From positions 1 to 64,000 of IMG/VR virus record IMGVR_UViG_2740892280_000002: a DNA stretch of 64,000 nt. The stretch is one strand, 5' to 3'. Positions 1,564-50,474 of this stretch are shown piece after piece (within the stretch, counting starts at the first letter, position 1; each line of letters begins with the position of its first letter). Below the pieces are notes generated by a model. That model was not told the origin of the DNA. It saw nothing but the letters and a program-made list of their open reading frames with translations, and did not search any database. The DNA is from a virus (taxonomy: Duplodnaviria > Caudoviricetes). Made by a program: the position numbers and the translations under genes.

Positions 1564-1603
1564 GTGCATTTTCAGTGTACATATTTCTGATTTTGGCTAC
1601 TCT
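1564..1603 (+). promoter_or_regulatory. Sigma70-like phage promoter (TGTACA-N16-TACTCT) overlapped by an inverted operator motif
   Basis: GTGCATTTTCAG-TGTACA at 1576; the spacer and -10 contain the reverse complement of GTAGCCAAAATCAGAAA. Confidence 0.6.
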
Positions 1604-1629
1604 CCAATAAAGACGAATTGGAGAGAGCC

Positions 1630-2448
1630 ATGATCGATTTTGCAGACCTTGACCAAGAGCCGGTAATCGGAAAAGCGGAAGCGCCGCAGAAAACCTTCCC
1701 CTGCACAGTTTGCAACGGGACAGGCAAATATCGCGGCGTCCGCGTCTACCAGGACAAGAGCCACTGCTTTGCCTGCAAGGGCGAAGGATGCTTCAAGACC
1801 GACCCTCGCAAGCTTGCCGCACGCCGGGCGAAGGCGAAGCTAAACAAGGCCGCGAAACTCGCGAAGGCAATCGACCAATTCGACAAGGCTAACCCAGGCA
1901 TTCACGAGTTTCTCAAAGACGCGAGCCGGTGGTCGGAATTCGCCTCCTCAATTCTTGGCAACCTTGAAGGTAAGGGCGGCCTCTCCGAAAGGCAGCTCGA
2001 TGCCGCCAAGTCAATGAAGGCCAAGTCCGAAGCACGCGAGAAAGAACGCGCCGAAGCTCGGGCAAAAGAGTCCGTCTCCGTCGACCTTTCGCCGATTAAA
2101 GCCCTCTTTGAGACCGCGAAAGAAAGCGGCAAGGCTCGCCCGGTTTTCCGCGCCGAGGGTTTGGCCCTCTCGCTCGCTCCCGAGAGCGGGCGCAACGCTG
2201 GCGCCATCTACGTCAAAAAGGACGGAGAGTATGCCGGGAAGCTTGTCGGCGATAAGTTCCTCCCGGCCTTCGGTGCCGAGAAAGGGATCGGCGAGGCTCT
2301 TCTCGAAATTGCCAAGAACCCGAAAGAGTCCGCGATCCGTTACGGTCGCCTAACAGGCGCCTGCTCTTGCTGCGGCCGTGAGTTGACCAACAAGGCAAGT
2401 ATTGAGCTCGGGATCGGCCCGATTTGCGCGGAGGCTTGGGGCTTCTAA
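1630..2448 (+). CDS. DUF6011-domain protein with N-terminal CxxCxGxG zinc fingers
   Basis: C-terminal CSCCGRELT...SIELGIGPICA; N-terminal CTVCNGTG and CFACKGEG; RBS GGAGAG before ATG 1630. Confidence 0.7.
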   Translation: MIDFADLDQEPVIGKAEAPQKTFPCTVCNGTGKYRGVRVYQDKSHCFACKGEGCFKTDPRKLAARRAKAKLNKAAKLAKAIDQFDKANPGIHEFLKDASRWSEFASSILGNLEGKGGLSERQLDAAKSMKAKSEAREKERAEARAKESVSVDLSPIKALFETAKESGKARPVFRAEGLALSLAPESGRNAGAIYVKKDGEYAGKLVGDKFLPAFGAEKGIGEALLEIAKNPKESAIRYGRLTGACSCCGRELTNKASIELGIGPICAEAWGF

Positions 2449-2480
2449 AAAAAGAGGCGGGTCTAGCCCGCCTTTTCTCT
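2447..2480. terminator. Bidirectional intrinsic terminator
   Basis: A-run, AGGCGGG/CCCGCCT hairpin, T-run, between convergent genes. Confidence 0.8.
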
Positions 2481-3517
2481 TACGCTAGAGCGCTGATCGT
2501 CCGAGGGTAGACCTCGAAGGCTCGCTCGAAAATCGAGTTTGCGAGCGCCCGAACCTCAAGCTGAGCATCGGACGGTGTCCGATCCCTAAAGAACCGACAG
2601 TAAGCGTCAAGCGTCCCGGTCCAATACCACGACGTCATAGTCGCATTCGGAAGAACGAAGCGAGCCTGCTCGGCGCAAACATCTGCCTCAATAAGCCCGT
2701 TGTAGAGCCGCTCGCAGGACTGGAGGTGTGCCTCGACAAGATTGTCTAGCGGCTTACCTCCGAACGCGGCTTCAACGCTCTCAAGCGAAGAGCCCTGCTT
2801 GACGTTCTCGGCCTTCTTTCGCCAGTAATCCGGACGGAAAAACTCCGGGCTCTCGGTAACGTACCGGCGAGAGATCTCGTTTTCGACAAACCCGTATTTA
2901 TGCTTGAACGCCTGACGCGCAATCGGGAACGGCGCGTGGCAACGGAAGGTCAAGCGTAGGAGGCGAGCGACTTCGCTCTCGGCTAGCCCGAGCTCGGTAA
3001 TCGTTTCATAGATTACCCCCTCCGGGACTGTTGAGAGCGCGGTATAGTCGACGATGTTCGCGTCATAGGTCTCGGGGATCTTGAGCTCGAAGACGCGGTA
3101 AATCGTCGGGAAGGTTTCCCGGATCTTGCTCGCGATAAGCGACCAATGCTCGACCGGCAATAGGTCGGCGTTTTCGATCCAGGCGAAGACTGAGCCGGAT
3201 TCGATGATCGTCGTCTCATATCCGCTCTTGGAGATGATCGCAGTCTCGAAGCCCGGCTTTCGATTGATCAGCCAATTGATCAAGTCGATGTTTTTGACCG
3301 ACCGCGCAAAGATCAAATTCGTATGGGCGAACGGGGTCCAGTGACGGTTACGGGCGAGGAAGCGGATAAGCTTTTCGTCCCGCGTCAAAAGGAGACCGCC
3401 GTCATCCCATTCGCTTTCCTTGGCGAACGATACGCGCGCGGCATTGACGACGGTTAGATCGCTCTGCGCCTCGGTTATCAACTCCCCCCGGATAACCGGG
3501 GAGAGCTTCGTGTTCAT
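2480..3517 (-). CDS. thyX: FAD-dependent thymidylate synthase with ~118-aa insertion
   Basis: DLTVVNAARVSF, HWTPFAH, KHKYGFVENEISRRY, EQARFVLP, WYWTGTL motifs. Confidence 0.9.
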   Translation of the reverse strand: MNTKLSPVIRGELITEAQSDLTVVNAARVSFAKESEWDDGGLLLTRDEKLIRFLARNRHWTPFAHTNLIFARSVKNIDLINWLINRKPGFETAIISKSGYETTIIESGSVFAWIENADLLPVEHWSLIASKIRETFPTIYRVFELKIPETYDANIVDYTALSTVPEGVIYETITELGLAESEVARLLRLTFRCHAPFPIARQAFKHKYGFVENEISRRYVTESPEFFRPDYWRKKAENVKQGSSLESVEAAFGGKPLDNLVEAHLQSCERLYNGLIEADVCAEQARFVLPNATMTSWYWTGTLDAYCRFFRDRTPSDAQLEVRALANSIFERAFEVYPRTISALA

Positions 3518-3537
3518 ACCTTGATTTCTCAAATTGG

Positions 3538-6153
3538 CTACGCTCCTTTCATACCTTTGGTCAAGACGGCTTCGAGTTGGTCATAGCCGCCGACGAACTC
3601 CTCGCCGTATTTTTCGTTTACCCAGACGACAACGGGGACGGTCTTGTGGTCCGGGTAGAAGTTGCGAACGATCCTCAAACGAGATTGGTCGCATTCGATG
3701 TATTGGAACCGCTCGCCGAGCTCGAAGAGCAGGTCCTTGGCCTTTTCACACCAAGGGCAATCAGCTCGCCCGTAGATCCGGAAACCTTCGCAGAAGGTAA
3801 AGTCGAAGCCTACCGAGCCGCTCTCGCGTTCGCCGGTAATCTGCTCCTCTTCGTCGAAGTCGACCGGGCAACCACCGGACCCACAATCGACATGCTCGAA
3901 GCCGATATCCTCCTGCGCGGAAATTTCGATATTGGCTACAAGCTGGTCATAGGTCTCCCGCGAGATCGGCTCCTCCGGCTGATACTCGTAAGCCGTTGTA
4001 TCGACCTGCGGCATCACGGAGCAGCACCGGACTGAGAATTGACCATCGATCAGCGTCTTGACGAAGTCGGCGAAACCAACTTCCTGCGGGTCATACTTGA
4101 GCGTGTATGAGACCTGGTTACCCGTCTCCCGGAGCGGAGTAACGCCGTCAAGATCAACGCCGGTGATCCAGTATTTTTCGATCAGGCGGAGGTACTCGTA
4201 CTGCTCCTCCGGCGTTGCCTCGGCAGCGGTTACGATCCAATCTCCGCCGTCGAGATCGCAGATCGTCGGGCGGGTCGGGAAACCGACAATAGTCGTGCCG
4301 GAGTAGCTCTTGAGCTCCCGAACCGGGTAGCCGCGCGAACGATATTCCTCGACAAGAGGATCATCGAAGCGGAACTGAACCCAGCGGAGGAATTCCCGCA
4401 TTGCCGGCAGGTGAGCACCTTCCGTCAACCCGAAGAGCTTCGAGGTCGTCCCGGCGGGCTTGAAGGTCGTATCCGTATGAGGGACCTCGACGCCAAGGAT
4501 ACGCGAGAAGATCTCAGCCTCTTCCTGAACCGCCCGCTTGAACCGGGAGAGCATCAACCAGAACGCTCTCGACGCCTTTTCGTCGACAAGCTCTTTCCAG
4601 CCGAAGCCGAACCGAGAATAGGCGTATTCATGGAGCCCGGTAATACCGACACCGATCCGGTTCGTCCGCCTGATTTCGCGCCCATAGAGAGCGTCCATCA
4701 GGTTGGTACGGATCAACGCCCGGACCGCCGTCCGGAAGGCGTCCTCGGCGTCGCTATCGTCCCGAGCGTGGAACGGGACGACGTCGGCGATCACGCAATA
4801 ACCGCCGAGGAGCAGGAGAGTGATCTCGCCGCACGGGTTGGTGATCATCGTATATTTGAGGAGCGTTACCTCGACCGCGAGATCGCGAAGTAGGGCGCGG
4901 GTCTCTTCGTCCGGCTTGAACTTCTCGGACTCCGCGTAAAAGCCATCGACGTAATCCTCGATACCGTCCCGGTTCTCGGTCAAGCGGTCCTGATTGATGA
5001 TCCCAGGCTCGCCGGTCCCGTCAAAGTAAGAGGCGCGGGCGAGGGCGATCAGAACGCGGAAAGCATGCTTGTCGAAGTGATCGACCTTCCCGGCAATCGT
5101 CAGTGCCGTAAGCGTATCGTCGACAGCCTCTTCGTCTTCGAGGATATCCCAGACGTCCGGGATCAGGGAGACGACCTTCGAGACGCGCTCGCGGAACTCT
5201 TCGTCAATCGTTACCGAGTTGTTGGAGGAGAAGAGGAAGCCGCCACGCTTGAGCTCGATAAAGCCGAAGATCGTCGCGTCTTTCCAGAACTTCGTCGCCA
5301 TGCGCGCGGCGCGGCGAGCTCCGCCAACAAGGACGCACTCGGCGAGGTAGTGATCGGCGAACATAGCCGCGCGCCAAGCTTCCATGCCGCTACCGTTAAG
5401 GCGGGCGATATTGCGGATCGCCTGCATAAGCGGACCTGGGCCGGACGCCGGACGTCCCTGCATCCCCATGATCGGCGCACCGCGCTCGCGGACCTTGGAG
5501 AAGTCAAGGAGCACGACTTCATTCATCCGGCCTTCGTAGGTCATCCGCTCGATGACTTCGATTGCCTTCGCCCAGCCTTCGCGGGAGTCCGGAACCTCGA
5601 AGACGGTAACCTCGCGGCCTTCGTAGAGGTGCTCGGCGTCCCGGCGCGTCATATAGCCGGAGATCTCGCCGCTCGCGACGTCCTTGTGACCCCAATCGAT
5701 AACGCACTCGATTGTTGGCGCAAGGGTCCAATCAACAGCCATCAAGGCGTCGTCGTAAGCGCGACCGACCCCGGAGCCGTTCAAGAGGAGGTAGAAGAGG
5801 AGGAACGAAAGAGCGGCGGTCGAGCAGTTCGTAAAGACCTCGATATTCCGATCCGGCTGGGTTTCGTCCCCGTGCTGAAGATGCCGGCCAGACATCAAGA
5901 GCGAAGCCTGCGCGAGGTGATGGCGCATACGAGCATATTCGAGGTTGAGCGTCTGCGGCTCGGAACCGTTGCGAGGGTCGAGGAGGGCGTTTCCGAGAGC
6001 TACGCGCTTCGCTACTTCCGGCCAAGTCTCGCGGCGACCGTCAATAACGCGATTGACCGTCCGGTCCGCGACAGCCTGCCCCATGCCGGGGAAGTAGCTT
6101 CGCTCGACCAGCTCGAAGCCGCCGTAGGTTTCATCGGGGTTCCAATGTTTCAT
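3538..6153 (-). CDS. nrdJ: Class II (B12-dependent) ribonucleotide reductase fused to C-terminal glutaredoxin
   Basis: TNC, TNPCGEI, RRIGVGITG-like, KPAGTTS, CGSGGCP motifs; then CPWC, TVP and GGYD glutaredoxin motifs; no NrdB gene in the window. Confidence 0.88.
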   Translation of the reverse strand: MKHWNPDETYGGFELVERSYFPGMGQAVADRTVNRVIDGRRETWPEVAKRVALGNALLDPRNGSEPQTLNLEYARMRHHLAQASLLMSGRHLQHGDETQPDRNIEVFTNCSTAALSFLLFYLLLNGSGVGRAYDDALMAVDWTLAPTIECVIDWGHKDVASGEISGYMTRRDAEHLYEGREVTVFEVPDSREGWAKAIEVIERMTYEGRMNEVVLLDFSKVRERGAPIMGMQGRPASGPGPLMQAIRNIARLNGSGMEAWRAAMFADHYLAECVLVGGARRAARMATKFWKDATIFGFIELKRGGFLFSSNNSVTIDEEFRERVSKVVSLIPDVWDILEDEEAVDDTLTALTIAGKVDHFDKHAFRVLIALARASYFDGTGEPGIINQDRLTENRDGIEDYVDGFYAESEKFKPDEETRALLRDLAVEVTLLKYTMITNPCGEITLLLLGGYCVIADVVPFHARDDSDAEDAFRTAVRALIRTNLMDALYGREIRRTNRIGVGITGLHEYAYSRFGFGWKELVDEKASRAFWLMLSRFKRAVQEEAEIFSRILGVEVPHTDTTFKPAGTTSKLFGLTEGAHLPAMREFLRWVQFRFDDPLVEEYRSRGYPVRELKSYSGTTIVGFPTRPTICDLDGGDWIVTAAEATPEEQYEYLRLIEKYWITGVDLDGVTPLRETGNQVSYTLKYDPQEVGFADFVKTLIDGQFSVRCCSVMPQVDTTAYEYQPEEPISRETYDQLVANIEISAQEDIGFEHVDCGSGGCPVDFDEEEQITGERESGSVGFDFTFCEGFRIYGRADCPWCEKAKDLLFELGERFQYIECDQSRLRIVRNFYPDHKTVPVVVWVNEKYGEEFVGGYDQLEAVLTKGMKGA

Positions 6154-6174
6154 ATATTTTCCTTTTGGCTACAG

Positions 6175-6615: not shown

Positions 6616-6725
6616 TCTTCTCTCCTTGTGCTTGAGACTAAAAAAGCCTCGGCGCTTGTAGCCAAGGCTTTCATTTTTGTCTACGGATACTCGAAAAAAA
6701 ATGCGGGCCTAAACCCGCACTCTTT

Positions 6726-7529
6726 TTATACCGAAGTTGAACCGACGATTAAGTCTAGCTTTTCGATCTCGTTTCCGGAAAATTTCTCTGCGCTTCCGTC
6801 CGATACGGTCGCGAGTGTGTAACCGTTAGCATCCGCCTCGGTAAGGCGACGGATCAGGATGTTCTTGTTTGCGAAGGTCGCGACGACGTAATCGCCGATA
6901 CGCGGCTGGCGCTCGGTAACAACGTAGAGCGTATCGCCCTGCTCAAACTTCGGAGCCATATCAAAGCCGACCTGGGTAACGGCATAAGCGCCCTTGTCGT
7001 CAGCCTGAGCCGGAAGCGCGGGGATAGTCCCCGAGGCTTTCCCGGCGAACCTATACGCGCCGTCTTCTTTGCGAAGGCTCTTTAGGGGAACATTAGCCGA
7101 GCGTGCGGCAATCGAGGCGCTCCCACGGTCGGCGGAGGAGCGGAGCCAGTTATTGATCTTCTCGGCCTCCTCGCCCGAAATCCGGCGCTTTCCTTGAAGA
7201 ATATTCGTAACGGCTGAAGGGGCGATCCCGAGGAGCTCGGCAAGCTCCTTGCGGAGGAGACCTTTGCGGCTCATTTCGGTCTCAAGCCAATCCGCCGAGA
7301 TCGGCGCGAAACTTCCGCTATCTCCGAAGATCTTCCCGACCGGGACGTTAAGAGCCTGTGCGAAGGCTTCCGCCCATTCCATCGTAAGCTTGCGCTCGCC
7401 GCGCTCGATACGGTTGATCGCCATCCGGCTCCGGTCGATCAGTTTCGCAAGCTCGGAAAGAGACATGTTCCGCTCGTCACGGAGTGCTTTGATATTCGGG
7501 ATTGGAAACTTGCTTTCTTCGTTAGACAT
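6726..7529 (-). CDS. CI-like repressor: two tandem XRE HTH domains plus degenerate S24 peptidase domain
   Basis: HTH1 LSELAKLIDRSRMAINRIERG; HTH2 RKELAELLGIAPSAVTNILQG; S24-like GFDMAP and ILIRRL; divergent from the replication operon. Confidence 0.82.
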   Translation of the reverse strand: MSNEESKFPIPNIKALRDERNMSLSELAKLIDRSRMAINRIERGERKLTMEWAEAFAQALNVPVGKIFGDSGSFAPISADWLETEMSRKGLLRKELAELLGIAPSAVTNILQGKRRISGEEAEKINNWLRSSADRGSASIAARSANVPLKSLRKEDGAYRFAGKASGTIPALPAQADDKGAYAVTQVGFDMAPKFEQGDTLYVVTERQPRIGDYVVATFANKNILIRRLTEADANGYTLATVSDGSAEKFSGNEIEKLDLIVGSTSV

Positions 7530-7586
7530 AGGCCCCTCCAAAAAATGTTTGACGCATTACTGTTGTGCCATGTTGGCAGTGTTCTG

Positions 7587-7624
7587 TTGACAAAAACGGA
7601 AGTCCTGTTACAACCGTAGCCAAC
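7587..7624 (+). promoter_or_regulatory. Putative rightward early promoter with downstream operator copy
   Basis: TTGACA-N16-TACAAC followed by GTAGCCAAC. Confidence 0.55.
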
Positions 7625-7660: not shown

Positions 7661-8167
7661 ATGTCAACAAATACAGGTTGCGAATCGCAGCCAGTCCCAG
7701 AGTTAGAGTTAATGCTCCCAGGTCTCGGTGAAGAGATCAGGAAGCTCGACGCCAAGATCTCGACCGAGAAATTCGAGAAAGAGGTAGGTGATCGCGTCAA
7801 GCAAATCCGAGAAGAATTCGGAGGACCGGAAAATATTTCGGTCGAGGACGCTGTTACCTTGTTCCAGGCGGTCCTTACCCGCGCTTACAAGGATGCGATC
7901 TGCCTCGATATGCTGATCTGCAACGACGAAGACGGCGAGGACGAAGCAAAGACCCAGGAACGGGCGCTTAGTTGGTTCCTTAAACGGTCGGTCGACTTCG
8001 AAAACGTTTGTCGTCTTGCTGGCTTCGATCCGGACAAAGTCTTTGCCTTGTCTGTAGCCGAATTCGTAAATCGAGGTACGGTATACCTTACAAACAAAGG
8101 AAACTACCGCATCGACTTTGATGAACTTGGAAAACCGCATAGGCGGGAAGGGGAGATCCTCCATTGA
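7661..8167 (+). CDS. Hypothetical phage protein
   Basis: RBS GGAGGG; pattern LFQAVL..A..DA...WF...DF..VC.LAG.DP resembles proteins I recall from other phages. Confidence 0.6.
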   Translation: MSTNTGCESQPVPELELMLPGLGEEIRKLDAKISTEKFEKEVGDRVKQIREEFGGPENISVEDAVTLFQAVLTRAYKDAICLDMLICNDEDGEDEAKTQERALSWFLKRSVDFENVCRLAGFDPDKVFALSVAEFVNRGTVYLTNKGNYRIDFDELGKPHRREGEILH

Positions 8168-8685
8168 TTATTGCAGCAGTTGATCCGGGCCAGCGCGGCG
8201 GGATTGCTTTTCTTGATACCGCGACCGGCAAGCTCCTGACCTACTCGACGCCCGGTTTCGACGTCAAAGACGCCAAGGGCAAGAAGACCGGGCGAAAGAT
8301 CTTCGACCCGTTCTCGGCAAGTGCGCTTCTCGTTTCTCACAAGCCTGACGTCTTTATTATCGAGCGTGTTCATGCCCGGACCGGCCAGGGTGTCACGTCG
8401 ATGTTCAATTTCGGTATGGACTTCGGGACGTGGATCGGCATCGCCGTCGCGAACAACCTAAAGCCGGTCTACTACTATCCGCAGACTTGGAAAGGCGCTC
8501 TCGGCCTCAACAAGAGCAAAGAGCTATCCCTAAAAGTCGCTCGGGAGAAGTTCCCGGAGAATGTCGCGGACTTCAAACGGAAGCTCGATGACGGTCGCGC
8601 GGAAGCTGCGCTGCTCGCCCACTATCACACCATTGTTTTGAATAGTGCGAGTAGCCAAAAACAGAAATTACTTGACGAAAAATGA
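8164..8685 (+). CDS. RuvC-like Holliday junction resolvase
   Basis: AAVDPG, IIERV, SMFNFG, DDGRAEAALLA acidic catalytic motifs. Confidence 0.85.
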   Translation: MIIAAVDPGQRGGIAFLDTATGKLLTYSTPGFDVKDAKGKKTGRKIFDPFSASALLVSHKPDVFIIERVHARTGQGVTSMFNFGMDFGTWIGIAVANNLKPVYYYPQTWKGALGLNKSKELSLKVAREKFPENVADFKRKLDDGRAEAALLAHYHTIVLNSASSQKQKLLDEK

Positions 8686-10024: not shown

Positions 10025-10078
10025 CCCGCGCTTTTCAAAACCTCAAATCGTAGCCAAATTCAGAAATTAGGAGACTCA

Positions 10079-10942: not shown

Positions 10943-10972
10943 GGCAGGGGATTCAATTCCCCTGCCTCTTTT
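10943..10972 (+). terminator. Intrinsic terminator
   Basis: GGCAGGGGA/TCCCCTGCC hairpin plus T-run. Confidence 0.7.
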
Positions 10973-11002
10973 ACGAGTAGACAAAAACAGAAAGGTCGAT
11001 AC

Positions 11003-14096: not shown

Positions 14097-14110
14097 ACAC
14101 TTCGAAGAGA

Positions 14111-14137
14111 GGGCGTGGACTGCGCCCTTTTTCTTTT
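14111..14137 (+). terminator. Intrinsic terminator
   Basis: GGGCG/CGCCC hairpin plus long T-run. Confidence 0.65.
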
Positions 14138-14180
14138 GCTAGACCGTAGCCAAAATCGGAAACTAAGATACGGAGAGAAG

Positions 14181-16852: not shown

Positions 16853-16881
16853 TGTACAGGATTTGCCGGATCGGTTACGAC
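16853..16881 (+). promoter_or_regulatory. TGTACA-class promoter
   Basis: TGTACA-N17-TACGAC, directly after an operator copy at 16830. Confidence 0.5.
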
Positions 16882-38034: not shown

Positions 38035-38046
38035 CCAAAAACGAAA

Positions 38047-40542: not shown

Positions 40543-40559
40543 GAAAATTCTCCTTTTGG

Positions 40560-40733
40560 CTACACGTTGGTCAAGTCATCGATTGCAATCGTTAGGCCGA
40601 TAGAATCGTAGTCGGGTGTTTTGCTGATCTCGATTGCGCCGGAGATAACCCCGGCTCCGAGGAGCGTAAGAATTGTCAGGATCAGGATCGCTTCGACGAT
40701 TTTCCCGGCGAGGTAACGCTTAAATTCGCTCAT
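40560..40733 (-). CDS. Small membrane protein
   Basis: Hydrophobic helix. Confidence 0.5.
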   Translation of the reverse strand: MSEFKRYLAGKIVEAILILTILTLLGAGVISGAIEISKTPDYDSIGLTIAIDDLTNV

Positions 40734-41011: not shown

Positions 41012-41136
41012 CTCGTTTCTCCGTGTTGTAGCCATTTACCGAAGATTCGGGACGGTTGTCCATACCCAAAAACAGAAAAACAGCGCGGGGAGCGCTGCTT
41101 CTCTAAAATTCAGCTTTTGGCTACAGTTGCCGCAAG

Positions 41137-41744: not shown

Positions 41745-42128
41745 TCAGTGTCCTTTCTTCGTTTCGTTTTTTCCGATTTTGGCTACTTTCGAGCGACTGA
41801 TAAGCGAACGTTTAAGGCGTTCCTTGGCAGTATCGCGCTGCTTGGCAGTAACCTTGCCGCTAGGCGTTACCGACAGGTCGTATCGGTGATAGCCCGAGAG
41901 GATTGCGCGGTAATAGGAGCGTTTGCTCGTATACCGCTTGAGAGCGAAGTGGGTAACTCGCCCGGAGACGTCCGGGTAAAGCTTGCGGATATCCTTGTAG
42001 ATCCCGACCTTGAGCGGGATTTTTGCCCGGCTCTTATCGAGGATAAAAACATCCGGGTGATCGTCTGCGAGGCGAGCTAGAAAAGCGTCTGCCTCAGACT
42101 TGATCTTGTAATAGGTCGCCTTGTTCAT
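41745..42128 (-). CDS. ProQ/FinO-domain RNA chaperone
   Basis: PLKVGIYKDI, ALKRYT...YY, G..RYDL...P.G.VT..Q...A. Confidence 0.85.
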   Translation of the reverse strand: MNKATYYKIKSEADAFLARLADDHPDVFILDKSRAKIPLKVGIYKDIRKLYPDVSGRVTHFALKRYTSKRSYYRAILSGYHRYDLSVTPSGKVTAKQRDTAKERLKRSLISRSKVAKIGKNETKKGH

Positions 42129-42252
42129 TGTCTCCTCGCGTTTTCGATATTGGCTACGTCTGAAGCGTTTATAGATTCCGGTTTTGTCTACGTCAAGCGA
42201 CTGGGTTAATGTGAGTGCGTTGGTAGAACATTCACGAAGAGGAGTTGAGCAA

Positions 42253-42564: not shown

Positions 42565-42602
42565 GCGGATTTTTTGTCGGCTACCTGTAGCCAATAACTT
42601 AA

Positions 42603-42630
42603 GGAGCGGGCCGAGAGCTCGCTCTTTTTT
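42603..42630 (+). terminator. Intrinsic terminator (overlaps the portal upstream region)
   Basis: GAGCGGGC/GCTCGCTC hairpin plus T6. Confidence 0.6.
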
Positions 42631-42644: not shown

Positions 42645-44258
42645 ATGCAGCATCAGACGGGTATTGAAACAGTCGCAGCGTCCTACGCTCACTCAATCGA
42701 GGACTGGGTCGCCTGCCGCGATGCAAGCAACGGTCAGCGTGAAGTCCACCGAAAAGGCGAGGTTTACCTCCCGCGCCTCGGCGGCCAGGACGCGGACGAA
42801 TACAAAGCCTATCTCCTACGCTCTACCTTCCTCGGAGCGTTCGGTCGGACCGTCGAAGCTTTCTCCGGAATGATCTTCCGGCGCGACCCGGTAATAAAGC
42901 TCCCCGGCAAAATGGAGGAGTGGCAAAAGGATGTTACCGGGGACGGTATCGATCTCGTGTCGTTCGCTTCTATGGTCGTCGATGAATCTCTAATTACCGC
43001 CCGATCCGGCATCCTGGTCGACTTCCCGTCGACCGATGGATATGGCGACTTGACTATCGCTGAAGCCGAGCGCTTGAAGCTTGTTCCGTTCCTTCGCCTC
43101 TATACCGCCGAGTCTATCGTTAACTGGCGCTTCGGCGACCTCCCGAACGGCGGGTATGGCGTTGTCAAGGTCGTGCTCCTTGAACATGTCGAGGAGGAGT
43201 CCGTCTCTAACGAATTCGAGACGGTTGAGCTCCGGCAGTACCGTGTTCTTGACTTCCATGAGGGAGAGTACCGGCAGCGTATCTACCGGCAGGATCAAAA
43301 AGGCGCAACGAAGCGCCGGACAGGGGTCGTAGACGCGAACCGGGAGGAGAAGCCGACCGGAGAGACGCCGAACGCCGACAGCCTGTATACGGGCCAGAAA
43401 ATCTCTGGCTATCATCTGTATGAGGTTTTCCCGCAGATCGGCGGGAAGCGTCTCAACTATCTACCGTTTACGTTTATCAACGTCCGGACGCTAACGGCGA
43501 ATGTCGAAAAGCCGCCTATGCTTGATCTGGTCAACCAGAACTTTCAGCACTACCGGATCTCGGCTGACTACTATCACGGCCTGCACTATGTCGGGTTGCC
43601 GACCCCGTACATTACCGGCGTCTCTGCCGACGAAGCTCCGACCCAGATCGGTCCTTCGCAGATCTGGCATCTAAGCAACCCGGAATCAAAGGTCGGTTAC
43701 CTACAGGTTGACGCTGCGGGCTTCCAATCTCTTCGTGAAGAAATGGTCGCTATCGAGGGTCGTATGGCTGCGATGGGCGCTCGCATGCTTGCGCCGGAAA
43801 AGAGCGGCGTCGAAGCTGCCGAGACGCTCAATATCAAGAGCCGGGGAGAGCACTCGACGCTCTCCAAGATTTCGGGAACCGTCTCGCGCGGTATCGAGCA
43901 GGCTTTGATTATCGCCCGCGACTGGATGAGCACCTCCGGCGAGGTTGTCTTCGAGCTCAATAAGGACTTTGTCGCAGCGACTTTGACCTCCGGGGATATT
44001 ACCGCGCTCCTCGGCGCTTGGCAGGCCGGGGCGATCTCTAAAGAGGTTCTCTTCGATAAGCTCAAGCAGGGCGAGATCATCCGCGAGGATGTTGAATTCG
44101 AAGACCATGAAGAGGCTATCGAAGAGGGCGCGGAAGATCTCGCCGGTATGTTCGGCGCTACTGAAGAAAGCCAAGACCAGGCTGGGAGCCGGTCGCCGGC
44201 AGGAGAGCAGGATGAGGAAGCTCTCGTAGATCAGGAAGATCCTGAAGGCTCGGAGTAG
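42645..44258 (+). CDS. Portal protein (DUF4055 family)
   Basis: YLPR...Y..YL.R..F, INWR, PPMLDL...N..HY..SADY, GLPTPY, W.AGAIS.E. Confidence 0.9.
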   Translation: MQHQTGIETVAASYAHSIEDWVACRDASNGQREVHRKGEVYLPRLGGQDADEYKAYLLRSTFLGAFGRTVEAFSGMIFRRDPVIKLPGKMEEWQKDVTGDGIDLVSFASMVVDESLITARSGILVDFPSTDGYGDLTIAEAERLKLVPFLRLYTAESIVNWRFGDLPNGGYGVVKVVLLEHVEEESVSNEFETVELRQYRVLDFHEGEYRQRIYRQDQKGATKRRTGVVDANREEKPTGETPNADSLYTGQKISGYHLYEVFPQIGGKRLNYLPFTFINVRTLTANVEKPPMLDLVNQNFQHYRISADYYHGLHYVGLPTPYITGVSADEAPTQIGPSQIWHLSNPESKVGYLQVDAAGFQSLREEMVAIEGRMAAMGARMLAPEKSGVEAAETLNIKSRGEHSTLSKISGTVSRGIEQALIIARDWMSTSGEVVFELNKDFVAATLTSGDITALLGAWQAGAISKEVLFDKLKQGEIIREDVEFEDHEEAIEEGAEDLAGMFGATEESQDQAGSRSPAGEQDEEALVDQEDPEGSE

Positions 44259-44856
44259 GGGAGAATTTCTCGGTCTCGTTACCGACAACGTCCCAGCCGG
44301 GCGCTGCCGATCGTGCAAACATTTCAAGCCTTGGAACGTCGCCGCATAGAGAGACGATATCGTCACGAATTCGGTCCGGTTTGCGAGAATGCTCGCGGAC
44401 CGGGTCGACGACAAGGCGGCGGACCGATTTAGAAACCCTCTTCGGCTTGCCGCGAGTTGCGAATAGGCATAGCTCGGGGTTTGCTCGCGTCCAATATCCC
44501 ATGCCGACGTGAAACGATTTATCGACGAACGCACGGCCGGAAATAAGCGCGTTCCAATCGAAGCGCTTGCGCAGCTTTACCCAATTGAAAGCGACAGTCT
44601 TAAACTCGAAACCCCACGCCTCGATTACTTCGAGCGTATGGGGGAGCATGTGATCAAGTCCCCAAATAAAAAGCGCCGCGTCTTTAGCACACCAATCAGC
44701 GACCGGGATCGCCTTGATATCGTCGAGCGTCATACAGTCGTAGTGCTGCTCGGGCGAGCGCGCTTTCCCCTTTGTCGACCAAGTCAAATGTGTCCACGCC
44801 GGGTCGGCATAAATCACCTGATAGTCGTTGCGGGGAGGGGTAGGGAATAACTCCAT
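44158..44856 (-). CDS. MT-A70 family DNA methyltransferase
   Basis: IYADPAW, HYDCM, ALFIW, WGFEFKT..FNWVK, GYWTRAN.E, HSRKP, LEMFAR, GW..VGNE. Confidence 0.9.
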   Translation of the reverse strand: MELFPTPPRNDYQVIYADPAWTHLTWSTKGKARSPEQHYDCMTLDDIKAIPVADWCAKDAALFIWGLDHMLPHTLEVIEAWGFEFKTVAFNWVKLRKRFDWNALISGRAFVDKSFHVGMGYWTRANPELCLFATRGKPKRVSKSVRRLVVDPVREHSRKPDRIRDDIVSLCGDVPRLEMFARSAAPGWDVVGNETEKFSPTPSLQDLPDLRELPHPALLPATGSQPGLGFLQ

Positions 44857-44901
44857 CTCTTGCCTTTTCTTTTCTCTCTTCCTCCTTGTATTATCGGCGC
44901 T

Positions 44902-45114
44902 ATGGCAGGCTTTCAGGTAATCTCCGGCGGTAAAGACGGAGACGAAAAAAAGGAAAAAACTCCGTCGCAATGGGTATGCCCCAATTGCAATGGATCTGCT
45001 GCAATTCCGGCAGTCTTCGCCCCTATCGTCCGAGAGGGGAAAGTCGTAGACGGCACAGATCGATTTATATGCGCCCTCTGTTTGTCAGACGGCCATATCG
45101 TTCAAGTTTCCTAG
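44902..45114 (+). CDS. Small zinc-finger protein
   Basis: CPNC...CALC. Confidence 0.5.
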   Translation: MAGFQVISGGKDGDEKKEKTPSQWVCPNCNGSAAIPAVFAPIVREGKVVDGTDRFICALCLSDGHIVQVS

Positions 45115-45465
45115 TAATTGGCAATCGTTCCGAGAGAGGCTTCTGCTAGCTTCATCGCTTGGTCCCTTGTACTTTTCGCGCCCCCGCTCAAAGGTTCGCG
45201 CTACTCGTACCCTAGCCAAGTCCCCTAGACCGCTTTCGCCTTTAGGATCGACCCTGACGGGATGCAACTTTTCCAATCCGGTCGCTTGTCGAGAGTGGGT
45301 TTCTCCGTTGCCTTCATCGCCAAGTGACGAGCGAGATATAGACAAAATCGGAAACGGTTACAAGTATTCCTGACGCGCAGCCTTGCGATAGAATCTGCAT
45401 ACGCCAAGGAAACGGGGAAATTCTCCTGGTTTTCGTCGCGCATCTAGTAGCCAAAAAGGGAATTT

Positions 45466-47003: not shown

Positions 47004-47237
47004 AAAAAATATCCTATCCTTGCCCGCTCCAACTAAGAAGGGCTAGGATGGGATATATTTTTTACTATTTAATTTCCTTCCCTCCTCACCCGCGCCTTTG
47101 TCGCTACGGGTAAACCTTCGCTAGGCGCGGGCGAAGAGTGACCGACCGAACGACTTAGGACCCAATCGAAAACGTCACGAGGATTAATTTTTAGGGGTGC
47201 TAGGCAGGCGCTATTCAGAAATTGGCTACGACGATAG
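47004..47237. ncRNA. Structured non-coding element, copy 2
   Basis: Same three conserved blocks, order and approximate spacing as 18506-18736. Confidence 0.6.
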
Positions 47238-47380
47238 CTCCAACCCCTTAAGCGCTCTCTATGGCCGTTTATTTTGTATTCCTGAAATGTGTTGGTCTGG
47301 ATTTGTCTCAAAGATTGATTTTTTGGCTACAAGTCGTTATCTGATCCCCGGCAACGACCCGAGGAAAGGAGATTTCGATT

Positions 47381-48352
47381 TTGAGCAATACCGTCATCAC
47401 AACCGGCCATTTGGAGGATTACGCGAAAAGAGTCGGGGAACTTGACCGGGCAGGTTTTGAAGGGGAGAGCGATCAGGTTTTTGAAAAGCTACTTGTCACC
47501 GGTTGGATACCTCCCGTGCCGGCCAGGAACGCGGCGGAGACAATTACCGCTTTCAACTCGCTCTATTTCCTCTCGACTGGCAAGCGAATTCCCGATCTCC
47601 GAATCCCGGTAGCAAAGGGGCTTAGCTCCCGGCGGCAGGATCTCGTTTACCGTGAATTGATCCCCGAGCTAATTTCCGCAATCGAAGAGAACGCTTCGAC
47701 CGGAACTCCGATCACGCGCATTCTCAACAATCGCGGCCTAAAAACGCCGACCCGGTCGGTTCATTCTCAGCAATGGATGCCGGGGAAACTTCAGTACCAT
47801 TTGAAGCAGGCGCTTTGCTACGACGACGACGGCGAGCTCGAAGAGTGCCTCGAAAATTACAACGTCCTCGCACAGGTTGAGGCGCGCGCCTCTGTCTCGA
47901 AGCGCGATATTCGGGAGGCGATCAAAGAGACGGTTGTCGAAATCTTCGAGGAAGTTTCGCTCGAAGGCGGCGGATGGCAGGACGCTTTGGAGCGCGTTCG
48001 CGAGTCCGGGGTCAAAAAAGTAAACGGCGAGGAGTGGTGTAGCCGGAGCCTTCTCGGCTTCGTTAACTGGCTCAAGGGCGAGGGCGTCAAGCTACCGAAA
48101 CTCTATTCCAAGGCGAAAGGTGAAACCAAGGGCGATCAAAATATCCGGAAGAACCACAAGAACGTGATTTCGGCAATGGAGCGTGCCGGTATTCGTAAGG
48201 CCGATATTCTCGCCGACCTGAGGTCGAGGCAGGTCCCCTACCTCGGCGGTCGCGGTCGAGGGAAGGGCGTAAAACTCTGGTCGGAAAGCTACTGGGGACA
48301 ATGGGAACGCGGCTGCAAAAAGCTCGGGCTCAAGATTCCAGATTTCAAATAA
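47381..48352 (+). CDS. Putative DNA-binding protein with three recombinase-type HTH-like repeats
   Basis: ILNNRGLKTP..W, VRESGVK..NGEEW, LRSRQVP..GG..W; RBS GGAAAGGAG. Confidence 0.55.
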   Translation: MSNTVITTGHLEDYAKRVGELDRAGFEGESDQVFEKLLVTGWIPPVPARNAAETITAFNSLYFLSTGKRIPDLRIPVAKGLSSRRQDLVYRELIPELISAIEENASTGTPITRILNNRGLKTPTRSVHSQQWMPGKLQYHLKQALCYDDDGELEECLENYNVLAQVEARASVSKRDIREAIKETVVEIFEEVSLEGGGWQDALERVRESGVKKVNGEEWCSRSLLGFVNWLKGEGVKLPKLYSKAKGETKGDQNIRKNHKNVISAMERAGIRKADILADLRSRQVPYLGGRGRGKGVKLWSESYWGQWERGCKKLGLKIPDFK

Positions 48353-48451
48353 TTGTAGCCAAATTTCGAATTGTCGATACGGGCACCTTACGACAACGGT
48401 ACGCCGATACCCGGCGTGCCGCTGCGCGGTTTACCTCCTGTGGAGAAGTCA

Positions 48452-49213
48452 ATGCCTGACGATATCGAGAACAAAGAGAAAGAAAACGAGACCAAGATCG
48501 ACCTGAACGACCCGGCTGTCGTCGCTGCTATCGAGGCGGCTGTCAGCGCGAAAATCGAGCCGATCAACGCGAAGAAAAACGAAATCCTGGACGAAAAGAA
48601 AAAGCTTCAGGCAAAGCTCGAAGCTTTTGACGGCGTCGACCCGGAAGAATTCAAGGCGCTCAAGGCCGCGATGGCCGAGAAGGCCGAAGAGGACGCCAAG
48701 GAAAAAGGCGACTGGCAGGCGATCCTTGATCAGCGCGAAACCAAGTATCAGACCCAGCTCGAAAAGGTTACGACCGAGCTGACCGGTCGCGCCGAACGCG
48801 CCGAAAAATTTGCAAAGGACCTGATCGTCAAGACCGAGCTGACCTCCGCTCTTGTCAAGGCGAAGGTCTCCGAGCCGTTCATGGGCGCGGTCGAAATGCT
48901 CCTCCGCGACAAGATCACCGTGTCCGAAGATGAGGCCAAGGGCTTCAAGGCATTTGCCGAAATCGACGGCGATCATGTCAACGTTGCTGAGTTTGTCCGG
49001 CTCTGGTCCGAATCCGAAGAGGGCAAGCACTTCGTGTCCGCTCCGGCAAACGGCGGCGGCGGCGGCGGCGTCAAGCCGGGCGCGAATTCCGGTCGCTCGA
49101 ATCCGTGGAAGGCGGACTCGAAGAACCTGACCGAGCAGGCGAAGATTTTGCGGACCGACCGCGCGCTTGCCCGTCAGCTTCAGCGCGAGGCAGGTGTCGC
49201 CGTAACCGCATAA
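48452..49213 (+). CDS. Capsid scaffolding protein
   Basis: Coiled-coil, GGGG linker, NPW...NLTEQ tail; directly before the MCP. Confidence 0.85.
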   Translation: MPDDIENKEKENETKIDLNDPAVVAAIEAAVSAKIEPINAKKNEILDEKKKLQAKLEAFDGVDPEEFKALKAAMAEKAEEDAKEKGDWQAILDQRETKYQTQLEKVTTELTGRAERAEKFAKDLIVKTELTSALVKAKVSEPFMGAVEMLLRDKITVSEDEAKGFKAFAEIDGDHVNVAEFVRLWSESEEGKHFVSAPANGGGGGGVKPGANSGRSNPWKADSKNLTEQAKILRTDRALARQLQREAGVAVTA

Positions 49214-49238
49214 AGCCTGGACGAAAATTTAAAAAGGG

Positions 49239-49270
49239 TAAGCCGCTGATTTTTCAGCGGCTTATTTTTT
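49239..49270 (+). terminator. Terminator-like hairpin between scaffold and MCP
   Basis: TAAGCCGCTGA/TCAGCGGCTTA plus T6. Confidence 0.65.
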
Positions 49271-49419
49271 GTCCGCTGTATCCGTCAAGTAAATTTCAAA
49301 TCAAGAGGAACAGAAACCTTATTCCGGCCTGCGGCCTACTTTGTTTGTTCCATTCGATACATGTCGGTCCTGTGGATTTGGCAGCTAAGTGAAGTTGGCT
49401 ATTATTGAAAGGAAATAAA

Positions 49420-50451
49420 ATGGCCGCTACCAAGATTGCAGACATCATTGAACCGGAAGTGTTCAACCCGTATGTCATCGAACGCTCCGCCGAGCTCTCC
49501 GCGCTCTTCCGTTCCGGTATTATCTCCAACGATCCGGAGCTCAATGTCCTGGCTATGGCCGGTGGCACCTTGATCAACATGCCGTTCTGGAAGGACCTCG
49601 ACGGCGAAGACGAAGTGCTCTCCGACTCCAACCCGCTGACCGTCAACCGGATCCAGTCCGGTCAGGACCTTGCCGTCCTGCACGCTCGCGGTAAGGCTTG
49701 GGGCGTCAACGATCTGGCGAAGGCTCTCTCCGGAGACGACCCGATGGCCGCTATCGGCGATCTGGTCTCCGAATACTGGGCTCGCCGTTGGCAGAAGCTT
49801 CTTGTCGCGACCCTGCAGGGCGTCTTCGCCGACAACGTTGCGAACGACTCCAGCGATCTGGTCCTGGCAGCCGGCAGCGAAGATACCGACACGACCGGTA
49901 TTATCCGCCTGACCTCCGACGTCGTTGTCGACGGCAAGTTCCTGCTCGGCGACGCCCAGGAAAAGCTGACCGCTATCGGCATGCACTCGACCGTCTTCGC
50001 CGGTCTGGTCAAGGCCAAGCTGATCGACTACGTGACCGTCGACGCTGCCGGTAACGTGATCGCCCAGGGCGCACACGGCGACCCGGCGGAGCGCACCTTC
50101 TCCATGCCGACCTACATGGGTCTGCGGGTTATCGTCGATGACGGCTTCCCGGTTCGTAACGGTGCAACCTCCGGCAAGGTCTATACCTCCTACCTGTTCG
50201 CTCAGGGCGCGATTGGCTTCGGCCAGGGTGAAGCTCCGGTCCCGACCGAGACCGACCGCGACTCCCTCGCAGGTGAGGATGTCCTGATCAACCGCAACCA
50301 CTTCGTCCTGCACCCGCGCGGCATCAAGTGGACCGGTGCTACCCAGGCCGGAACCTTCCCGACCAACGCCGAGCTGGCGAACGCCTCCAACTGGGATCGC
50401 GTCTACACCAAGAAGAACATCCGCTTGGTGGCCGTCGAAACCAACGGCTAA
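49420..50451 (+). CDS. Major capsid protein (HK97 fold)
   Basis: TKIADIIEPEVFNPYV, INMPFWKDL, YW.R..Q, R..FVLHPRG..W; strong codon bias. Confidence 0.9.
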   Translation: MAATKIADIIEPEVFNPYVIERSAELSALFRSGIISNDPELNVLAMAGGTLINMPFWKDLDGEDEVLSDSNPLTVNRIQSGQDLAVLHARGKAWGVNDLAKALSGDDPMAAIGDLVSEYWARRWQKLLVATLQGVFADNVANDSSDLVLAAGSEDTDTTGIIRLTSDVVVDGKFLLGDAQEKLTAIGMHSTVFAGLVKAKLIDYVTVDAAGNVIAQGAHGDPAERTFSMPTYMGLRVIVDDGFPVRNGATSGKVYTSYLFAQGAIGFGQGEAPVPTETDRDSLAGEDVLINRNHFVLHPRGIKWTGATQAGTFPTNAELANASNWDRVYTKKNIRLVAVETNG

Positions 50452-50474
50452 TTGTAGCCAAAAACCGAAAAATT

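Follow-up and report, generated by a model that had tools for sequence, protein, structure and literature searches.

The prophage analysed here carries about 50 copies of a directional 17–18-bp word, (T/C)GTAGCCAAAA-N3/4-GAAA, which, judging from sequence comparison, is probably the operator of the prophage's own immunity repressor CI (6726–7529). We suggest that the sites most likely serve as docking sites for a double-headed CI and form a Gram-negative counterpart of the mycobacteriophage stoperator network. In the window, that is, the whole 64,000-nt stretch analysed from this marine alphaproteobacterial prophage, the word occurs in 37 copies versus 0.7 expected, and the 79.5-kb provirus contains 52. 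Searching the window with GTAGCCAAAAWCRGAAA at up to 3 mismatches gave these 37 matches (0.68 expected), a number reached in 0 of 100 shuffles, which confirmed the asymmetric motif network of about 30 copies described in the initial annotation; the core GTAGCCAAAA at up to 1 mismatch gave 38 matches versus 2.6 expected. An 18-column PWM made from the sites, with information at positions 0–10 and 14–17, revealed 53 sites of at least 14 bits in the whole 79,511-bp provirus versus 0.2 in shuffles. Conservation of the word is bipartite: positions 1–10 and 14–17 are kept, with block centres approximately 10–11 bp apart, and positions 11–14 are free and can even house the SD GGAG.

Position and orientation statistics were computed on the 52 sites of at least 16 bits with our own gene calls. 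Intergenic DNA makes up 14.7% of the total and holds 44 of the 52 sites (binomial p 5e-29). As had been claimed for the junction copies, most sites are co-oriented with transcription (35 co-oriented, 12 anti-oriented and 5 in divergent regions; p 0.001), and 17 of the 35 co-oriented ones have their G1 16–35 nt 5′ of a start codon. Between 0 and 50.6 kb, a site is present in 32 of 45 (71%) gene gaps of at least 12 nt. The earlier statement that none follows 50.5 kb holds for strong sites in the window, where only 50495–50511 (16 bits) and 56215–56231 (19 bits, in a CDS) were found, but the array restarts a short way past the window, with sites at 64022, 65268 and 76574 of the provirus. Sites both precede and follow terminators and thus have no fixed relation to RNA ends. 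A Roseibium prophage relative (60–85% at the protein level) carries the same array, with 48 sites in 59.7 kb at shared junctions as well as at junctions of non-shared genes, and in the comparison of the two phages motif columns are 81% identical versus 67% in other intergenic columns. Sites outside the predicted promoters are as follows; the strings previously quoted at 21980 and 24198 proved exact.

3525–3541, minus strand: co-oriented junction site 24 nt 5′ of the thyX start, with the RNR gene stop codon as its TAG.
3923–3939, minus strand: co-oriented site within the RNR coding sequence, kept in the Roseibium relative.
6156–6172, minus strand: junction site 19 nt 5′ of the RNR start, syntenic in the Roseibium relative.
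6668–6684, minus strand: site between two terminator hairpins in the interval of cI and the dUTPase gene.
8054–8070, plus strand: co-oriented site within gene 7661–8167, syntenic in the Roseibium relative.
8651–8667, plus strand: co-oriented site at the end of gene 8164–8685; 28.1 bits.
10050–10066, plus strand: junction site 29 nt 5′ of the start at 10079.
10977–10993, plus strand: junction site after terminator 10943–10966, 26 nt 5′ of the helicase start.
14146–14162, plus strand: junction site after terminator 14106–14132, 35 nt 5′ of the start at 14181.
17147–17163, plus strand: junction site 30 nt 5′ of the helicase start at 17177.
18733–18749, plus strand: site before terminator 18751–18769, convergent with 18773–18789 (minus).
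18773–18789, minus strand: inverted partner across hairpin 18751–18769; 18.6 bits.
20009–20025, plus strand: junction site; TAG is the dnaN stop codon, with the SD (GGAG) in variable positions 11–14.
21980–21996, plus strand: junction site with embedded SD, 19 nt 5′ of ATG.
23053–23069, plus strand: junction site 27 nt 5′ of an exoribonuclease-like gene.
24198–24214, plus strand: junction site with embedded SD, 19 nt 5′ of ATG.
27520–27536, plus strand: strongest site (30 bits), 91 nt 5′ of ORF 27611–28495, kept in the Roseibium relative.
30141–30157, minus strand: junction site 25 nt 5′ of a start codon.
31689–31705, minus strand: co-oriented site at a gene end.
34403–34419, minus strand: junction site 28 nt 5′ of a start codon.
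36298–36314 (plus) and 36332–36348 (minus): convergent pair in a divergent intergenic region.
38031–38047, plus strand: junction site 16 nt 5′ of the terminase start; TAG is the upstream stop codon.
40547–40563, minus strand: junction site with embedded SD.
41028 (plus), 41062 (plus) and 41108–41124 (minus): sites around terminator 41075–41103, the inverted copy giving the T-tract.
41770–41786, minus strand: co-oriented site at the end of the ProQ/FinO gene.
42141–42157 and 42175–42191, minus strand: two direct sites upstream of the ProQ/FinO gene.
42587–42603, plus strand: site before terminator 42601–42627, upstream of the portal gene.
45338–45354 and 45447–45463, plus strand: two direct sites, the second 19 nt 5′ of a Mu-F-like gene.
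48355–48371, plus strand: site directly 3′ of the stop codon of gene 47381–48352.
50454–50470 (plus) and 50495–50511 (minus): convergent pair flanking the bidirectional terminator after the capsid gene.

A second group of sites lies in or beside predicted promoters. A TGTACA box occurs 7 times in 79.5 kb and in 6 of the 7 cases has a site no more than 25 nt away. The registers are fixed and of two kinds: an inverted site ends 2–4 nt from the box, or a co-oriented site ends 16–17 nt (or 6 nt) upstream of it. These layouts are identical in the Roseibium relative. TGTACA appears to be the −35 box of a conserved predicted promoter family, with the inverted copies over the spacer and −10; the promoters are predictions, and a generic sigma-70 scan passes only one of them (TGTACA(27113–27108)-16-TATAGT). 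All six inverted copies that the initial annotation had located inside promoters (1584–1600, 18863–18879, 27098–27107, 32516–32532, 35127–35143 and 47314–47330) are present and lie over the predicted spacer and −10.

1584–1600, minus strand: inverted site over spacer and −10, with TGTACA box 1576–1581 and gene 1630–2448; 27.7 bits.
7586–7602, plus strand: operator variant GTTGACAAAAACGGAAG covering the −35 TTGACA at 7588–7593; 21.4 bits.
7661–8167, plus strand: first gene (168 aa) of the early operon divergent from cI, 68% identical in the Roseibium relative.
16830–16846, plus strand: co-oriented site 6 nt upstream of TGTACA box 16853–16858, likewise in the Roseibium relative; 29 bits.
18863–18879, minus strand: inverted site over spacer and −10 (CTACAA) of the predicted dnaN promoter; 25.1 bits.
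27098–27107, plus strand: inverted half-site GTAGCCAAAC in the spacer of the promoter with −35 box 27113–27108.
27131–27147, minus strand: co-oriented site 17 nt upstream of −35 box 27113–27108; 22 bits.
30927–30943, minus strand: co-oriented site 16 nt upstream of TGTACA box 30905–30910.
32516–32532, plus strand: inverted site over spacer and −10, box 32536–32541, likewise in the Roseibium relative.
32559–32575, minus strand: co-oriented site 17 nt upstream of −35 box 32536–32541.
35127–35143, plus strand: inverted site over spacer and −10, box 35148–35153, kept in the Roseibium relative.
47213–47229 and 47314–47330, minus strand: two inverted sites, the second overlapping the predicted −10 before gene 47381.

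The variant at 7586–7602 lies in a predicted early promoter (−10 TACAAC) divergent from cI. Its block over the −35 beside cI is kept in the Roseibium relative, and boxes like it adjoin the cI homologues in loci L065, L196 and L197. A Pfam search with the 168-aa product of gene 7661–8167 gave no match.

The proposed reader of the motif is encoded next to this variant.

6726–7529, minus strand: cI-type repressor of 267 aa with HTH1 (13–67) and HTH2 (79–131).

Pfam assigns to it two HTH_3 domains and a Peptidase_S24 domain. The AF2 model (pLDDT 79) leaves the inter-domain arrangement uncertain (pTM 0.45) and matches 186 CI, lambda CI and LexA in Foldseek; the C-terminal beta domain is LexA/lambda-CI-like, with the catalytic Ser changed to Asp and Lys to Arg in the family alignment. 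As modelled, CI is a tandem HTH on a lambda-CI/LexA-like fold. Its family comprises just 6 clusters among 1.8 billion representatives, and its three closest members share an identical HTH1 recognition helix. In 7 of 7 loci fetched, L194 and L196 among them, the family comes with motif-like sites, and L195 contains 5 sites of at least 15 bits in 8.5 kb versus 0.06 expected. L197, with an orphan chromosomal cI homologue, has a single site of at least 18 bits in its 20.8 kb, 229 bp upstream of that gene; in L065, whose CI is 35% identical and keeps the HTH1 helix, the 14 kb contain only about 3 sites, all weak. This co-occurrence does not single out CI, because every locus but L197 belongs to related phages, which have other genes in common as well. 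Wherever sites start with G, the residue in front of recognition helix 1 is R or K, and in P0005, where it is L, 0 of 7 sites start with G, a covariation that comes from one protein and 7 sites.

Over RNA signals or promoters, a DNA operator is the favoured reading and gains real comparative support, because the conserved columns form two blocks separated by one helical turn, inverted copies keep a fixed register over promoter spacer and −10, the promoter divergent from cI has a variant over its −35, and sites occur on either side of terminators. The link to CI likewise gains comparative support, because the protein has a pair of HTH domains joined to a lambda-CI/LexA-like body, motif-like sites turn up in each locus fetched for its small family and one residue change tracks the loss of the first G. 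Together with the site geometry, the promoter copies and the −35 variant, this partly supports the original proposal that one repressor, the double-HTH CI, is responsible; no support emerged for the other binders put forward (the 47381 protein and the 46743 XRE).

We propose a division of labour between the HTHs of CI, one for GTAGCCAAAA and one for GAAA a helical turn further along, so that the site would be asymmetric because two different HTHs in one chain each read one block. In the lysogen, CI would occlude the early promoter divergent from cI through the variant over its −35 and, on the inverted copies, the spacer and −10 of at least 5 TGTACA-box promoters; a second copy upstream of the −35, often present, could be bridged by a CI dimer through the LexA-like C-terminal domain. 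In the left 50 kb, where about 70% of gene gaps have a site, CI on the co-oriented copies may act as a stoperator-like backstop that blocks or dampens read-through. Purely by analogy with L5, these junction sites may stop elongating RNA polymerase (roadblocking); a role in RNA or translation would likewise predict that half of the co-oriented sites lie 16–35 nt before a start, sometimes with an SD embedded.

Such a role, in which the word would be an RNA-level tag in 5′ UTRs and intercistronic regions that tunes translation or mRNA stability of most phage genes, as might the Cluster K SAS, is unlikely. Its reader would be a phage factor, either an antisense RNA or the ProQ/FinO protein, the sole phage-encoded RNA-binding candidate (41745–42128, minus strand; Pfam 8e-18), whose gene is common to both phages. 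Besides the 35-to-12 orientation bias and the 17 start-proximal sites, several with an SD, it draws on anti-word copies that lie in T-tracts of transcripts and in one conserved non-coding element. Two paralogous non-coding elements bear the word in opposite orientations, and that at 47004–47237 is a candidate source of antisense RNA with the complementary word. However, only half of the co-oriented sites are start-proximal, several have a terminator directly 3′, the inverted copies in fixed register in promoter spacers would leave the RNA without the word, the variant overlaps the −35 beside cI, the free positions 11–14 fit antisense pairing poorly, and the orphan cI homologue has a site with no phage genes around it. 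All the DNA-level evidence would fit equally well an operator for a protein other than CI, such as the 168-aa (7661–8167) or the 213-aa (35592–36233) product, or a host factor, and several conserved phage proteins have no recognisable fold. We consider this improbable: a DNA-binding domain was detectable in none of these phage proteins, L197 retains only the cI homologue and the site, and the two-block asymmetric site matches a two-HTH chain. The host-frequency check proposed earlier found only 3 matches in 401 genomes (approximately 1.7 Gb) of the related order holding Cohaesibacter and none in the host flanks searched; thus the word is not a host word, and no host regulon in the genomes searched would use it.

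The word is very unlikely to be a promoter or transcription start element specific to the phage. It often follows a terminator and precedes an RBS, but the PWM has no conserved sequence 5′ of it, an SD at positions 11–14 requires the transcript to begin inside or before the word, several copies immediately precede a terminator, and a scan of 40 proteins turned up neither a sigma factor nor an RNA polymerase. We give similarly little credence to a neutral or selfish repeat, or a by-product of the A/T tracts of bidirectional terminators, with no regulatory role. Some convergent pairs do flank hairpins and supply A and T tracts, but most sites are single and away from hairpins, termination does not need the GTAGCC block, and the consensus is maintained across phages with proteins 32–66% identical and at non-homologous gene junctions.

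An operator array read by CI would be of a kind already known from L5 stoperators, SPβ SPBRE/MrpR and P1 C1. P1 is a large temperate phage whose monomeric C1 repressor reads asymmetric 17-bp operators at many promoters scattered over the genome; its operators are promoter sites, whereas most sites here lie at gene junctions. T1-like phages (T1, Stevie) of Gram-negative hosts also have asymmetric 22-bp repeats in 16–20 copies, mainly intergenic and oriented with transcription, but these phages are lytic with no repressor known, the function of the repeats is unknown and the sequences are unrelated to ours (PMC4319613). The Cluster K SAS/ESAS is, like many sites here, an asymmetric one-orientation repeat just 5′ of start codons that can include the SD, is kept before non-homologous genes and has never had its function established (PMC3203893). 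It differs in lying nearly always 3–7 bp from the start codon and at non-structural genes only (PMC3203893), whereas half of our sites are away from start codons, some are followed by a terminator and promoters contain inverted copies. In SPβ, the SPBRE, a repeated intergenic element across a large prophage, was similarly predicted in silico as a repressor site, and ChAP-seq later confirmed its binding by one master repressor, MrpR/YopR (PMC10516654). MrpR has a tyrosine-recombinase fold and approximately 10 promoter-located sites (PMC10516654), in contrast to the HTH/LexA-like candidate and approximately 50 sites, most at gene junctions, described here. The operators and stoperators of Cluster A mycobacteriophages, bound by L5 gp71 and the TipsytheTRex repressor (PMC9283540, PMC6550527), share with our array dozens of short asymmetric sites at promoters and short intergenic gaps, sometimes over stop codons, oriented with transcription and, as proposed here, read by a single polypeptide with two DNA-binding modules in successive major grooves. 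Our array, known from sequence alone, belongs to an alphaproteobacterial host and has a bipartite site of 17–18 bp rather than 13 bp, and the candidate repressor is unrelated to gp71, with duplicated XRE HTHs on a lambda-CI/LexA-type body. Because CI, unlike gp71, has a dimerisation-type C-terminal domain, pairs of sites may be bridged.

The window contains 37 matches to GTAGCCAAAAWCRGAAA with up to 3 mismatches, compared with an expectation of 0.68. The consensus site is TGTAGCCAAAAACAGAAA, and an iterated position weight matrix (PWM) placed the information at position 0 (T/C), positions 1–10 (GTAGCCAAAA) and positions 14–17 (GAAA), with positions 11–14 weak and nothing conserved outside the motif. 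The PWM describes an asymmetric site. Across the provirus, 52 sites scored at least 16 bits where approximately 0.2–1 would be expected, so the dispersed asymmetric network described in the initial annotation stands far above chance; 44 of them are intergenic, in DNA of which only 14.7% is intergenic (p = 5e-29). The orientation bias also held when every site was counted: 35 sites run with local transcription, 12 oppose it and 5 are located between divergent genes (p = 0.001). From 0 to 50.6 kb, sites occupy 32 of the 45 gene gaps of at least 12 nt and none of the 34 shorter gaps; from 50.6 to 79.5 kb, only 3 of 12 gaps carry one and the tail module is nearly site-free. Strong sites reappear at provirus positions 64022, 65268 and 76574. 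The initial impression that copies cease after 50.5 kb therefore captured a sharp thinning in the tail module but not an end of the array, which continues beyond it.

The window, bases 1–64000 of the 79,511-bp IMG/VR provirus, starts at the integrase gene (DUF6538; 1–1557), the only integrase-like gene, which lies at the prophage end beside host DNA. Downstream are thyX, a class II ribonucleotide reductase gene fused to glutaredoxin, a dUTPase gene and the cI-type repressor gene, followed by a divergent early/replication operon (AAA_24, helicases, an AAA_25 protein and dnaN), a long stretch with small genes on either strand, next the terminase, portal, Mu-F-like protein and capsid genes, and the tail genes last. 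An MT-A70 adenine methyltransferase gene (44158–44970, minus strand) is encoded on the opposite strand from the head genes and shares about 100 bp with the portal gene at the latter's 3′ end, an arrangement that is the same in the relative described below (L070 4890–5612). Among the tail genes, an AT-rich insert (49% GC island, 56–58 kb) encodes a 200-aa XRE-family HTH protein (56522–57124, minus strand), and an inverted 19-bit motif copy (56215–56231) lies within the CDS preceding it. The strongest motif copy (27520) precedes a 294-aa ORF (27611–28495, plus strand), whose third-position GC is low (0.47) and which lacks a Pfam match, located in a 1.1-kb gap between minus-strand genes; this ORF may be a moron. 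No tRNA was found, and the window contained no Rfam family match.

The same prophage, with its host flank, is present in a Logan assembly (L066). The sole close relative found is a syntenic prophage of an uncultured Roseibium sp. (GCA_947500145.1), of which 59.7 kb was covered by walking; proteins common to both phages are mostly 60–85% identical, and the two differ in many accessory genes. No DNA-level match emerged when 44 kb of the window was compared by Megablast with 50,697 GenBank phage records, and a protein-pattern scan of GTDB genomes for the 770-aa replication protein found nothing. The Roseibium prophage carries 48 sites at ≥14 bits with the same consensus, 31 co-oriented and 7 anti-oriented, both at syntenic junctions and before genes absent from the other phage. 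In 19 alignable syntenic gaps, motif columns were 81% identical compared with 67% for other intergenic columns.

A host origin of the word would predict comparable frequency in host DNA. The host flanks (3.3 kb and 4.2 kb) contained no site, and GTAGCCAAAANNNGAAA, present in about 12 copies in the provirus, occurred 3 times in 401 genomes (~1.7 Gb) from the order of a Cohaesibacter genome, a sample that may not include Stappiaceae, and was rarer there than its reversed control. Cohaesibacter and Roseibium belong to one order according to NCBI. At this order level the word is not equally frequent in host DNA, and we rejected a host motif on that count. An exact 17-mer scan of IMG/VR returned 17 single matches, all unrelated, and scanning GTDB genomes with a degenerate 17-mer produced at least 120 single chance matches, with no multi-copy locus among the matches listed. 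The core word was not common to 38 capsid-protein relatives in IMG/VR (≤56% identity); PWM matches in these 38 proved to be an artefact of AT-rich composition, making them unfit as a control.

By position, the sites fall into the following classes.

Classes of site and associated promoter-like elements
Class A, n = 17: first G of the word (G1) 16–35 nt before a start codon
Class B: sites within promoter-like DNA (predicted promoters)
1576, 16853, 27108, 30905, 32536, 35148 (window): TGTACA copies of the predicted promoter family
1584–1600, 32516–32532, 35127–35143, and half-site 27098–27107: inverted copies ending 2–4 nt from the TGTACA box
27131–27147, 30927–30943, 32559–32575: co-oriented copies ending 16–17 nt upstream of the TGTACA box
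16830–16846: co-oriented copy ending 6 nt upstream of the TGTACA box
Class C, 6668–6684, 18733, 41108–41124, 42587, 50454 and provirus 65268: after a stop codon, then a terminator hairpin
Class C, 10977 and 14146: directly behind a terminator hairpin

Class A accounts for only 17 of the 35 co-oriented sites, others preceding terminators or sitting in predicted promoters. The Shine–Dalgarno (SD) sequence of Class A copies follows GAAA or falls inside the free positions 11–14, as in the SD-carrying junction copies noticed initially at 21980 and 24198, which are indeed present (GTAGCCAAAAGGAGAAA). At five sites (3541, 20009, 30943, 38031 and 40563) the upstream gene ends on the TAG of the word, which serves as its stop codon.

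For Class B, the TGTACA hexamer has only 7 copies in 79.5 kb, of which 6 adjoin a site. When TGTACA is taken as a −35 box, TATAGT, TATAAG, TACATA, TACAAG, TACTCT or TACGAC follows 16–17 nt further on, and in the relative these boxes recur with TATTAT, TAAAAT, TACAAC and TACAAA behind them; a generic promoter scan detected TGTACA-16-TATAGT at 27113–27086. Because the three inverted copies and the half-site end 2–4 nt from the box, they cover the spacer and the first bases of the −10, bearing out the inverted promoter copies of the initial annotation, and another two inverted copies overlap −10 candidates of CTACAA type ahead of dnaN and gene 47381. The predicted TGTACA promoter family is paralogous and recurs in the Roseibium relative; in three of its members a common GTGCG(A/T)TTT block lies upstream and the leader TCTCAACAACGACGGAGA is near-identical. 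The spacer that separates cI from the divergent early operon holds the variant GTTGACAAAAACGGAAG, which contains a perfect TTGACA −35 with TACAAC 16 nt later; the relative preserves this block almost unchanged, whereas the remainder of the spacer varies.

Convergent pairs of sites around −35 boxes and hairpins have a centre-to-centre spacing of 33–46 bp, and in the Class C pairs the T-tract is provided by the inverted copy. At 10943–11003 and 14106–14181, a terminator hairpin, motif, RBS and start codon follow one another with no recognisable promoter, an order hinting that read-through is regulated, or that antitermination operates, in the replication operon.

CI (267 aa; 6726–7529, minus strand) is the only repressor-like protein and has two HTH_3 domains and a Peptidase_S24 match in Pfam. 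An AF2 model from a 7-sequence alignment (pLDDT 79) gave two helical HTH domains (13–67 and 79–131) joined through a weak linker to a beta domain, in an arrangement that a pTM of 0.45 makes unreliable. Foldseek matched 2fjr, 3bdn and 1jhf at E ~1e-7, grouping CI with 186 CI, lambda CI and LexA. A profile search of 1.84 billion representatives yielded only six full-length family clusters; the HTH1 recognition region SRMAINRIERGERKLTM is identical among the three closest members, with overall identity down to 34%. Motif-like sites were present in every locus fetched for a family member. A syntenic 8.5-kb contig (L195; 51% GC, CI 32% identical) carries 5 sites at ≥15 bits where 0.06 would be expected, every one of them at a junction, and in two other loci (L194 and L196) sites lie inside or adjoining the cI-proximal spacer. 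L065, whose CI is 35% identical with the same HTH1 helix, has only ~3 weak motif-like sites in 14 kb. Directly before recognition helix 1, the six members with G-initial sites have R or K, and the member P0005, whose seven sites start with A or C, has L; this covariation with G1 is suggestive but thin.

One CI homologue (L197), in an ordinary chromosomal context, is the only case without other phage genes; its 20.8-kb locus holds one site at ≥18 bits, 229 bp upstream of the homologue gene and beside two TGTTGACA(A/T)AA boxes. The orphan belongs to a chromosome of 5.5 Mb and is divergently arranged with a 1389-aa gene without a Pfam match (L197 5423–10807), the spacer combining inverted TGTTGACA boxes with the one strong motif copy; the orphan may represent a domesticated repressor.

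The S24 catalytic dyad was placed on the CI alignment by eye, at what we take to be the LexA/CI motifs. CI has GFDMAP where G-x-S-M would stand and IRR at the Lys position; in 6 of 7 family members Ser is changed to Asp or Glu and Lys to Arg, only P0005 keeping both Ser and Lys. The dyad thus appears to be lost, and induction probably does not proceed through RecA-stimulated cleavage; the degenerate dyad predicts a non-cleavable repressor and antirepressor-driven induction.

Co-orientation and proximity to the RBS are compatible with recognition of the word either in DNA or in RNA. We favour a DNA-level reading on the architecture and placement of the sites: the word consists of two blocks with a free centre, roughly one helical turn separating the block centres; promoter spacers hold inverted copies in fixed register, where the word would be missing from the transcript, in a layout conserved in the relative; and the variant beside cI is fused to a −35 hexamer. 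The distance to start codons or RNA ends is also not constant, half of the co-oriented sites not being start-proximal and several preceding terminators. That the word is itself a promoter was rejected, because there is no upstream conservation, some copies contain an SD and some have a terminator immediately behind them; among the 40 proteins scanned, none was a sigma factor or an RNA polymerase.

Transcribed copies of the word might in addition be recognised by anti-word RNAs or the phage ProQ/FinO protein, which would add a second layer at the RNA level. A ProQ/FinO-domain protein (Pfam 8e-18) is encoded at 41745–42128 (minus strand), with two direct motif copies upstream of its gene and one at the 3′ end, and is present in the relative too (L070 7672–8046). 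Two paralogous non-coding elements (18506–18736 and 47004–47237) share a 59-bp hairpin block without an Rfam match, each with a motif beside a GGCTA/TAGCC hairpin, the two motifs being in opposite orientations.

On the favoured DNA-level reading, we suggest that a single CI chain would read the asymmetric site with both HTH domains, and that dimerization through the LexA-like domain could bridge convergent pairs around −35 boxes or hairpins. Bound promoter sites would occlude RNA polymerase, a step that is reasonably grounded in the site positions. By analogy with L5 (PMC9283540), junction sites might act as oriented roadblocks, or alternatively as a reservoir for prophage silence.

Taken jointly, these observations may describe a small, undescribed family of temperate alphaproteobacterial phages that independently evolved stoperator-type whole-genome silencing on a lambda-CI/LexA scaffold, although we offer this reading tentatively and hold it to be somewhat less than probable. 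Within it, HTH duplication would account for the asymmetric 17-bp site, and dyad loss would require an antirepressor rather than RecA for induction. To our knowledge, stoperator-type silencing has been demonstrated only in actinobacteriophages, and their repressor fold is found nowhere else; within the literature searched, the present protein solution and host group appear undescribed. If true, this Gram-negative prophage would provide a second protein solution, unrelated to the first, and show the saturation of gene gaps by oriented repressor sites to be a convergent strategy. With a CI/LexA-like fold and a site cleanly divided into two blocks, it would then be a tractable system in which to ask how RNA polymerase is halted by a bound repressor in only one orientation. 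The word is also a sharp marker for this phage group and for prophage boundaries, and the degenerate protease dyad predicts a non-SOS induction route.

Like lambda CI and LexA (S24), CI joins an N-terminal HTH region to a C-terminal S24 beta domain. Unlike them, it lacks, at the motif positions as we presume them to be, the Ser/Lys dyad of RecA-stimulated self-cleavage, and it pairs an asymmetric site with two HTH domains per chain instead of a two-fold symmetric operator with one HTH per subunit. P1 C1 is a further master-repressor array. In the master-repressor array of SPbeta (SPBRE/MrpR; PMC10516654), the repressor has a tyrosine-recombinase fold, unlike the HTH/LexA-like candidate here. 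Two look-alikes have no known function: the T1/Stevie repeats (PMC4319613) and the start-associated sequences (SAS) of Cluster K (PMC3203893), nearly all copies of which, unlike the present sites, are only a few nt away from a start codon, in the RBS position. There are parallels with the Cluster A mycobacteriophages, in which many dispersed copies of one short asymmetric site likewise correlate in orientation with transcription and occupy short gaps, stop or start codons and the early lytic promoter (here, the variant on the −35 beside cI). The Cluster A repressor, however, is a gp71 homologue with an N-terminal HTH and a 'Stoperator' domain, whereas CI has two HTH_3 domains and an S24-like domain; with Cluster A-like behaviour but an unrelated protein, the array is not a member of the Cluster A family.
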